64,000 bases of DNA from the NCBI RefSeq assembly GCF_044324875.1, contig NZ_CP172185.1, one strand, 5' to 3'. This DNA is from Escherichia coli (GTDB lineage: Bacteria > Pseudomonadota > Gammaproteobacteria > Enterobacterales > Enterobacteriaceae). Shown piece after piece: positions 28,086 through 30,184 of this stretch. Position 1 is the first letter of the stretch. Each line of letters opens with the position of its first letter. The translations under genes and the position numbers were made by a program. A model generated the notes under the pieces. That model was not told the origin of the DNA and did no database searches. It saw nothing but the letters and a program-made list of their open reading frames with translations.

Positions 28086-28954
28086 GGTTCGTCGTCTTCT
28101 TCTTGTTCAGCAGCTTGTTTTAATTTGCGGTATTCCCCGAGAGTGACAGTAATTTCCGCGCCAAGCAAGACGATACACCATGTCCAGTAGACCCAAACAA
28201 AGAGAATGGGGATCACCGCCAGCACGCCGTAAATGAGCTGATATGACGGGAACATGGTGATATAAAGCGCGAAACCTTTCTTTCCTGCTTCGAACAGGAG
28301 TGCAGCGACAAACGCGCCGACAATCGCGTCGCGGTTAGGTACGCGGATGGTAGGAACAATGCTGTACAGCAACCAGAAGGAGATCCACGACAACAGCAGC
28401 GGAAAAATACGCAGCACGTTGTCGATGACAGTATTGAGATCGCTCGCCCAGCGCAGGGAGAGCAAATAGGAACTGATCGCCAGACTGGCCCCTGCCAGCA
28501 GCGGCCCCAGCGTTAAAATCATCCAGTACACGGCGAACGAGTAAATTTTTGGTCGCGCTCGTTTACTTCGCCAGATGGTATTCAACGCGCTATCGATGGA
28601 GTACATCAACAATAACGCGGTGACGATCAGCCCGCACGCCCCAACGGCGGTCATCTTGTTGGAATTGGCAACAAATTGTTCGATATACCGCTGAATAACA
28701 TCGCCAGTAGCAGGCAGAAAGTTGGCAAAAATAAAGTGACGCAACTGAATGCTGACGTCGGAAAACATTGGAAAAGCGGCGAAAAGCGCAAAAACAACGG
28801 CAACCAGCGGCACTAATGAGAGCAACGAAACATAGGCAAGGTTACCTGCCAGGGTTGTCATGTTGTCCTCATCAATGCGTTGCCAGAGTAGTTTTAGCCA
28901 GGCCCATAGTGGACGGGTACGGTGCCTGGCTTTGTCCTGAATGGTTTTTAGCAT
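28082..28954 (-). CDS. yihY: Inner-membrane protein YihY (Rbn/BrkB family)
   Basis: 290-aa polytopic membrane protein; overlaps dtd start. Confidence 0.88.
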
Positions 28955-29058
28955 AACACCTTCGCGAAATAGTCCGGGATGGTGGTTTTATCTTTCACCA
29001 GAATACTGGTAATGCCTAGCTGATTCGCTCCTTCTATATTATCGGCGTTATCGTCGAA
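28948..29058 (-). pseudogene. yihX: 3' fragment of yihX (HAD phosphatase) truncated by IS1
   Basis: Encodes only ...[36 protein letters not shown] and abuts the IS1 end at 29059. Confidence 0.7.
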
Positions 29059-29113
29059 GGTGATGCTGCCAACTTACTGATTTAGTGTATGATGGTGTTT
29101 TTGAGGTGCTCCA

Positions 29114-29389
29114 GTGGCTTCTGTTTCTATCAGCTGTCCCTCCTGTTCAGCTACTGACGGGGTGGTGCGTAACGGCAAAAGCACCGCCGGACATCAGCGC
29201 TATCTCTGCTCTCACTGCCGTAAAACATGGCAACTGCAGTTCACTTACACCGCTTCTCAACCCGGTACGCACCAGAAAATCATTGATATGGCCATGAATG
29301 GCGTTGGATGCCGGGCAACTGCCCGCATTATGGGCGTTGGCCTCAACACGATTTTACGTCACTTAAAAAACTCAGGCCGCAGTCGGTAA
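29114..29389 (+). CDS. insA: IS1 InsA
   Basis: 91-aa [26 protein letters not shown]... Confidence 0.9.
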
Positions 29390-29811
29390 CCTCGCGCATA
29401 CAGCCGGGCAGTGACGTCATCGTCTGCGCGGAAATGGACGAACAGTGGGGCTATGTCGGGGCTAAATCGCGCCAGCGCTGGCTGTTTTACGCGTATGACA
29501 GGCTCCGGAAGACGGTTGTTGCGCACGTATTCGGTGAACGCACTATGGCGACGCTGGGGCGTCTTATGAGCCTGCTGTCACCCTTTGACGTGGTGATATG
29601 GATGACGGATGGCTGGCCACTGTATGAATCCCGCCTGAAGGGAAAGCTGCACGTAATCAGCAAGCGATATACGCAGCGAATTGAGCGGCATAACCTGAAT
29701 CTGAGGCAGCACCTGGCACGGCTGGGACGGAAGTCGCTGTCGTTCTCAAAATCGGTGGAGCTGCATGACAAAGTCATCGGGCATTATCTGAACATAAAAC
29801 ACTATCAATAA
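29308..29811 (+). CDS. insB: IS1 InsB (expressed as InsAB' by frameshift)
   Basis: 167-aa ORF overlapping insA in the -1 frame. Confidence 0.88.
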
Positions 29812-29826
29812 GTTGGAGTCATTACC

Positions 29827-30184
29827 CATAACGTGGATAAAAACGTACGGACGATGCCCCAGTTTTCAACGCAATGGCGACGGCTTCGTCAATAGATGCC
29901 TTATCTGAAGCGCTGGTTTCAATATGAATATCAAGGTTCAGACGGCGGGCTTTATCCCCAAAGGCAGAGAGTTCTTTATCATCCATATTACCAAGAGAAA
30001 AACGCTCGCCATCCAGAACATGGATTTTGACGCCACGTAGATTATTTTCACTTGCGATATCAAGTAAATCAGCAGGCAACACTCTTTCCAGCCGCATATT
30101 TAAATGAAAGGCATAAGCATGTAAATAAAGAGGAAGAGTGTCGACACGTTGTAGAATCTTTCTTGCGTTATTTATTGTCACCAT
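29827..30184 (-). pseudogene. yihM: 5' fragment of yihM-like sugar-phosphate isomerase/epimerase (TIM barrel) truncated by IS1
   Basis: About 119 codons of N-terminus; reading frame runs into the IS1 end where a stop is supplied. Confidence 0.65.

Follow-up and report, generated by a model that had tools for sequence, protein, structure and literature searches.

The subject of this work is a 64,000-nucleotide stretch of Escherichia coli DNA (NCBI RefSeq assembly GCF_044324875.1, contig NZ_CP172185.1), referred to below as the window, in which a copy of the insertion sequence (IS) IS1 stands where E. coli K-12 MG1655 carries the yih genes of sulfoquinovose catabolism. The element lies between remnants of two genes, yihX and yihM, and comparison with close relatives points to a deletion that arose within one clone. 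The features of the locus are listed below by window coordinates.

28082–28954, minus strand: yihY, the intact left neighbour, 290 amino acids (open reading frame (ORF) and K-12 annotation).
28948–29058, minus strand: yihX 3′ remnant, the last 36 codons and the stop, identical to K-12 YihX residues 164–199.
29050–29067: left (variable) junction, yihX nucleotide 490 joined to the left inverted repeat (IRL) of IS1; joint at 29058/29059.
29059–29826, plus strand: IS1, 768 bp, intact (terminal inverted repeats, ORFs and transposase profile score).
29059–29081: IS1 IRL.
29114–29389: insA, inside IS1.
29308–29811: insB′ frame, inside IS1.
From 29365: A6C frameshift site, IS1 position 307.
29804–29826: right inverted repeat (IRR) of IS1.
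29818–29835: right (anchored) junction, IS1 IRR joined to yihM nucleotide 358; joint at 29826/29827, flank beginning CATAACGTG.
29827–30184, minus strand: yihM 5′ remnant, nucleotides 1–358, 119 codons, residues 1–119 identical to K-12 YihM.
30192–30902, minus strand: yihL, the intact right neighbour, 236 amino acids (ORF and K-12 annotation); in E. coli, this exact protein occurs widely.

IS1 elements are about 768 bp long, have imperfect 23-bp terminal repeats that start with GGTGATG and GGTAATG, and produce the InsAB′ transposase through a −1 frameshift at an A6C motif. The element at 29059–29826 has this length and is bounded by canonical, imperfect 23-nt terminal inverted repeats (GGTGATGCTGCCAACTTACTGAT and ATCAATAAGTTGGAGTCATTACC). 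Its insA gene is intact, the A6C motif is present, and the InsAB′ fusion is open over 232 amino acids, scoring 245 bits against the NCBIfam transpos_IS1 profile (cut-off 100). The element is ~99% identical to copies annotated as IS1A/IS1B by RefSeq, is the only IS1 in the 64-kb window, and, as judged from these features, looks functional. A simple scan revealed no σ70-like promoter above background directed outward from the IS1 left end toward yihY.

In a simple IS1 insertion, 8–9 bp of target sequence are directly repeated on either side of the element. No target duplication surrounds the window IS1: the 9-mer that touches its left end is ATCGTCGAA, and its right end meets CATAACGTG. Such flanks are expected after a flanking deletion; they speak against a simple insertion and leave the identity of the element untouched. 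An earlier, sequence-only reading of the window had described an IS1 at 29059–29826 between a 36-codon yihX end and a 119-codon yihM start, with no 9-bp duplication; both points were borne out, the flanks being identical to K-12 and the flanking 9-mers unlike each other.

The yihX remnant matches positions 164–199 of the 199 positions of the NCBIfam glucose-1-phosphatase profile, and overlaps the start of yihY by 7 nt. The ORF called for yihM (29822–30184) continues past codon 119 for one extra codon and then a stop, both within IS1; the exact 120-amino-acid truncated YihM product is recorded on 78 contigs. To the right of the yihM remnant, intact yihL is followed by typA.

The window is colinear and co-oriented with K-12 MG1655, from K-12 position 4,094,091 down to 4,026,828, and K-12 gene order and orientation are kept for ~29 kb to the left and ~34 kb to the right of IS1. 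The alignment ends at window position 29058, which corresponds to K-12 position 4,076,042 in yihX, and restarts at 29827, which corresponds to 4,061,522 in yihM. (The right-hand BLAST alignment ran 6 nt into IS1 owing to an ATTACC sequence that yihM has two bases before the junction.) The K-12 interval 4,061,523–4,076,041, 14,519 bp, is therefore absent from the window. It contains yihN, ompL, yihO, yihP, yihQ, yihR, yihS, yihT, yihU, yihV, and csqR, together with the 3′ part of yihM and the first 489 nt of yihX. No DNA of the yih cluster from this interval occurs elsewhere in the 64-kb window. The gene order that the sequence-only reading had given for K-12 (yihL-yihM-yihN-ompL-yihOPQRSTUVW-yihX) agrees with the K-12 annotation, and the loss of the sulfoquinovose cluster at this locus, which it had deduced from that order, was confirmed by the alignment that it had suggested for sizing the deletion. 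The contrary outcome that it had named, a simple insertion with target duplication, is not what the flank alignment showed.

Clone-mates of the window strain were found through the exact product of a neighbouring ORF of 604 amino acids, which was carried by 20 contigs in the look-up. Several of them are 99.97–100% identical to the window over 4.8–8.5 kb, and the identity stops exactly at position 29058. Beyond this point, GCA_002467655.1, GCA_019089345.1, GCA_016679215.1, and run SRR3657334 continue into an intact yihX. Three clone-mate contigs (L029, L030, and L031) run on through csqR, yihV, yihU, yihT, yihS, and yihR into a gene for a TauE-type exporter, and GCA_002467655.1 runs on further into yihQ (contig L067); in the case of GCA_016679215.1, DNA was compared as far as yihX. 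Since near-identical clone-mates still carry the cluster past 29058, the window deletion is, on this comparison, a real and recent event within the clone.

In the ancestral cluster of the clone, tauE lies between yihR and yihQ; many E. coli have this gene, and K-12 is without it. It encodes a 291-amino-acid sulfite exporter of the TauE/SafE type (L037, 10964–11839; L067, 1114–1989), and it is plausible that the exporter is an accessory to sulfoquinovose metabolism. Compared with the clone's own tauE-type cluster, 15,291 bp are missing from the window. Because the ancestor of the clone had a cluster of this type, the loss amounted to ~15.3 kb rather than 14,519 bp.

The junction between yihX and IS1 IRL seen in the window was found in none of 5,426 complete E. 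coli genomes, the closest of which is 99.1% identical to the window over 20 kb. The same junction is present in GCA_958308375.1, which matches the window at 100% across 8,759 bp, 126 nt of them in IS1, and in Logan run ERR1512459, where the sequence reaches 29 nt into IS1. A contig of GCA_025289245.1 ends 2 nt before this junction.

The most informative relative is GCA_002467655.1, which is 99.99% identical to the window to the left of 29058 and has an identical 5-kb right flank. One of its contigs (NMMD01000081.1) ends with IS1 IRR joined to yihM nucleotide 358. Another (NMMD01000076.1, L079) ends with yihN nucleotide 119 joined to 127 nt of IS1 IRL, and the strain retains everything from yihN to yihX (L079, L067, and L029). 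The contig ending in yihN and IS1 was located through the predicted 373-amino-acid truncated YihN product; the exact YihR, YihS, and YihN sequences were too common to serve as probes, occurring in 13,000–48,000 blocks of the collection and returning only unrelated long contigs. If one IS1 bridges the two contigs, GCA_002467655.1 would have the same anchor as the window with a deletion of 842 bp only, and an intact pathway.

Other states of the locus can be glimpsed among the clone-mates. A 44,504-bp contig of GCA_016679215.1 has the length of the left flank plus 15,291 bp plus the right flank; this agreement, which is arithmetic only, suggests that the locus is uninterrupted and IS-free in this strain. 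Contig ends within the clone fall in the yihN-yihM spacer in GCA_025525175.1 (reported for at least 20 samples) and in the 5′ part of tauE in GCA_019089345.1. Neither end carries IS bases; they hint at further deletion states. By contig-length arithmetic, a simple insertion may be present in run SRR31121307; YihM occurs in three protein variants.

The anchored junction recurs far outside the clone. An 80-nt probe spanning IS1 IRR and yihM was matched in one piece in 19 of the 5,426 complete genomes (14 at 100% and five at 97.5% identity), and in one further complete genome, that of strain HB37, the IS1 junction lies 3 bp off this site. There, yihM holds a ~20-kb IS1-bounded resistance segment (NZ_CP053080.1, 5,089,061–5,109,215) with a truncated SulP gene and the integrase of a class 1 integron.

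The far ends of IS1 were followed in genomes whose right junction is identical to that of the window. The left end lies in yihO in an NCTC draft (L005), in yihR at three positions (one in B27, one in EC6 and ET76, and one in J31), in the yihR-tauE spacer in ETEC1720, and in yihS in the NT1F10 group. Altogether, at least six other left ends are found in other E. coli with the same right junction. Strains with near-identical 5-kb right flanks and the common anchor differ in their left ends, as seen with NT1F10, EC6, and B27, and again with J31 and ETEC1720.

Five contigs from drafts or metagenomes have an IS1 in the opposite orientation at the anchor base of yihM. The IS1 variant of J31 and ETEC1720 differs from the other copies at 43–48 nt (~6%). 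The 5-kb flanks at the site represent several backgrounds, one of them identical to K-12, and include pairs that are 1–5 differences apart and have opposite IS1 orientations. Because both orientations, a ~6% divergent IS1 variant, and several flank backgrounds are present, multiple independent insertions are indicated, and the insertions at this nucleotide are evidently not all one inherited event.

We conclude that yihM nucleotide 358 is a previously undescribed IS1 hot spot that seeds nested deletions of sulfoquinovose genes in many lineages; no mention of yihM together with IS1 was found in the literature searched. IS1 also occurs at more than 12 other yihM positions in complete genomes, and many other YihM truncations are located at contig ends. 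IS1 hot spots studied in lacZ/lacI and pBR322 are characterized by AT-rich targets, sites for IHF, and homology to the IS1 ends. Like these, the yihM site is used repeatedly to the exact nucleotide, in both orientations and by different IS1 copies, is relatively AT-rich, and has a terminus-like motif nearby. The G+C content is 44% in yihM and 41–45% in yihN, ompL, and yihO, compared with 49–55% in the other genes tabulated (for example, yihL, bipA, and yihP–yihY), and a GGTAAT sequence that resembles the IS1 terminus is located 3 nt from the yihM junction. In other E. coli (L047, L038, L048, L052, and L058), a different element, of the IS3 family, is inserted in yihM 4 nt from the hot-spot junction, around the joint of GCAAATTACCTTCATA and TGTAGTGG; the site thus draws more than one kind of IS.

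A second recurrent target may be present at yihN nucleotide 119. This nucleotide is joined to an IS1 end in GCA_002467655.1 (L079, 1–160, IRL) and in the unrelated L070 (2952–2990, IRR). In L078, from a third lineage, IS1 (IRL) seems to be joined to yihN a few bases deeper into the gene. The motif GGTAATGC is found 17 nt inside yihN.

To account for these observations, we favor a reading in two steps, to which we assign a probability of about 60%: an IS1 at the yihM hot spot, followed by an IS1-promoted adjacent deletion that extended leftward to yihX. In the first step, which the comparison of strains shows, IS1 entered yihM after nucleotide 358 with IRR facing the 5′ part of yihM and yihL. 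In the second, the element would have remained anchored there as IRL became joined to ever more distant DNA. We infer that the likeliest route is intramolecular replicative transposition, in which the IS1 ends would find their target in the chromosome that carries them, with loss of the intervening circle. In the window, IRL came to lie in yihX after nucleotide 489, ~15.3 kb including tauE was lost, and one intact IS1 remained, free of a target duplication. The locus has the hallmarks of such an event: the IS is retained at the joint, order and orientation of the flanks match those of an undeleted reference, and one junction (IRR with yihM nucleotide 358) is shared with a less-deleted relative and the other is new. 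Adjacent deletion is favored because members of the clone, and likewise strains with near-identical right flanks, share one right end and differ in the left, and because the searches found no IS1 within yihX. The long-term evolution experiment (LTEE) offers a precedent: its IS-associated deletions that had no target duplication all started as an insertion, which was followed by an adjacent deletion that often kept growing (PMC11708052).

Several points weigh against this reading. The chemistry of the second step is unreadable from its product, and recombination with a second IS1 in yihX would yield the same sequence. Among the 5,426 complete genomes, junction queries in both orientations recovered no hot-spot insertion of the simple kind, flanked by a 9-bp duplication (the HB37 segment was the only near hit), and none was directly seen in the clone. 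The single IS1 that would bridge the contigs of GCA_002467655.1 is deduced from a short-read draft, and the contig ends within the clone in the yihN-yihM spacer and in tauE show no IS sequence. Finally, the evidence spans 64 kb of the genome, and growth on sulfoquinovose is predicted, by gene content, to be lost.

The alternative that survives best, one that we regard as rather unlikely and still worth serious consideration, is recombination between two IS1 copies. A second, co-oriented IS1 would have been inserted in yihX, and RecA-dependent excision between the copies would have left one hybrid IS1. The product would be the same as in the window, with colinear flanks and no target duplication. 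In ET76, two direct IS1 copies are located 291 bp apart in yihM, which demonstrates that two-copy intermediates exist at the locus, and recombination between IS copies is a frequent cause of missing target duplications (PMC11708052). However, no genome or contig was found with an IS1 in yihX that has its own duplication, the junction between yihX and IS1 being absent from all 5,426 complete genomes. Moreover, each of the many left ends would require a separate extra insertion in the correct orientation.

The order of events could also be reversed, with IS1 entering yihX first and the new joint of an adjacent deletion falling on the preferred target in yihM. Since the yihM site is a demonstrated preferred target of IS1, intramolecular events would be drawn to it as well, and the lack of simple hot-spot insertions in complete genomes is consistent with this order. 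Nevertheless, we consider it very improbable, for a near-identical clone-mate has IS1 at the yihM site with yihX and the whole pathway intact, and no IS1 was found in an otherwise intact yihX.

Even less credit is given to a one-step event, in which a new IS1 would have been captured into a double-strand break during an unrelated deletion, as proposed by Ngan et al. for IS5 and IS481. Copies of IS amid deletions, without target duplication, have appeared overnight (PMC11708052), and the lack of simple hot-spot insertions in complete genomes is compatible with such a course; a one-step event nevertheless leaves unexplained why one end is always the same yihM nucleotide and the other end variable, and why a clone-mate has the same anchor with a far smaller deletion. 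An assembly artefact (a misjoining of contigs that end in IS1) or a relocation of the IS1-flanked yih segment by inversion or transposition is just as hard to credit: all short-read contigs of the clone-mates break inside IS1, so that the link across is deduced, and 64 kb of the genome are visible, but the window reads through the entire IS1 with K-12 order and orientation on both flanks, at least two independent data sets have the same junction of yihX and IS1 and a third contig stops 2 nt short of it, contigs in these data sets end at IS1 as expected, and published surveys did not recover, at other genomic sites, the yih genes that were missing from the locus.

The two-step reading places the locus next to well-studied cases of IS-driven deletion. 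Classical IS1-promoted adjacent deletions were reportedly described in the gal region by Reif and Saedler in 1975. As in the window and in the nested series, IS1 was kept, one junction was fixed, the endpoints varied, and there was no target duplication. The gal-region deletions were selected in the laboratory next to one IS1, whereas natural isolates yielded those described here, and their anchor is a recurrent hot spot in its own right. The IS1-bounded deletion as such is the product of a long-known, textbook mechanism; what is added is the stepwise series within one clone and the undescribed hot spot. The course seen with IS150 in the LTEE was similar, in that an insertion was followed by a small adjacent deletion and then by its extension (PMC11708052), for which the 842-bp and 15.3-kb states in one clone offer a counterpart. 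IS150 belongs to the IS3 family and was followed in time-resolved samples, whereas here the element is IS1 and the order of events is deduced from comparison.

The yih cassette is known to be evolutionarily labile. A survey of 413 strains reported that in genomes with a short cassette, the missing genes of the long cassette are absent elsewhere; in the short form, yihTUVW are kept and inverted, which was ascribed to recombination or gene transfer (PMC12608037). The text of that report contains no mention of IS1, insertion sequence, or transposase. In contrast to the short cassette, none of the yih pathway genes is left in the window, the loss having occurred through an IS1-bounded deletion.

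Sulfoquinovose is a major plant-derived sulfur sugar, and E. coli is among the few gut bacteria that degrade it. [quoted passage not shown] Thus, by gene content, this locus has lost the complete sulfo-EMP sulfoquinovose pathway together with the regulator. The strain is expected to be unable to use sulfoquinovose, because the sulfo-EMP genes are gone and missing yih genes were not found elsewhere in the published survey (PMC12608037). YihX, a glucose-1-phosphatase, and YihM are predicted to be inactivated. yihY-dtd-fabY have been deprived of the DNA upstream of yihX and of any promoter that it contained.

To read gut sulfur metabolism from genomes, it is important to know in which lineages the pathway was lost and by what route, and the locus offers a clean natural case in which IS1 drove gene loss step by step within one clone. 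There is also a practical side, since short-read assemblies break exactly at the hot spot and yih genes can be wrongly scored as present or absent. One may go further and propose that sequence or structure makes yihM nucleotide 358 (perhaps also yihN nucleotide 119) a hot spot for IS1, and that this fragile point gives rise to nested deletions that repeatedly erode sulfoquinovose catabolism across independent lineages. We offer this generalization tentatively and with some doubt. If it is true, loss of the pathway would be predictable and convergent, possibly selected in some hosts, rather than a series of random accidents.

Further departures from K-12 were noted elsewhere in the window. Between rhaM and frvA, ~1.8 kb at 970–2747 is not in K-12 and encodes a 464-amino-acid protein named a carbohydrate porin by the sources. 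At 8280–8287, ~470 bp of K-12 sequence (4,086,945–4,087,416, covering the beginning of yiiG and the DNA upstream of it) is missing. A cluster of ISs at 15136–20550 replaces the K-12 sequence between fdhE/yiiF and yiiE; its members are an IS110-family transposase, an IS21-family istA/istB pair, and an IS3-family element. The IS3-family copy (~19118–20549) is missing from the clone-mate contig NMMD01000076.1, and the IS content thus varies within the clone. The IS load had at first suggested Shigella, an idea that found no support and was dropped.

An island that is not in K-12 occupies 20550–26157, between yiiE and fabY. In addition to small ORFs of unknown function, it contains a NadS/HTH pair (22500–23102) and an alpha/beta hydrolase of the hormone-sensitive-lipase type (23256–24239). 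The ORF of 604 amino acids used to find the clone-mates is located at 24408–26222 on the minus strand (617 amino acids when counted from an upstream GTG) and belongs to a family present in E. coli SMS-3-5, UMN026, and others. No match to its product was found in PDB, NCBIfam, or Pfam; its CKSAKDR motif recalls the CX5R phosphatases such as SopB/IpgD, a resemblance that we presume rather than claim. A 24-bp tandem repeat at 26644–26691, at the 3′ end of fabY (yiiD), results in a FabY of 337 amino acids with repeated EEGGNEE(Y) units at its end. In relatives, FabY is 313, 321, or 329 amino acids long, so the repeat copy number varies, even among clone-mates.

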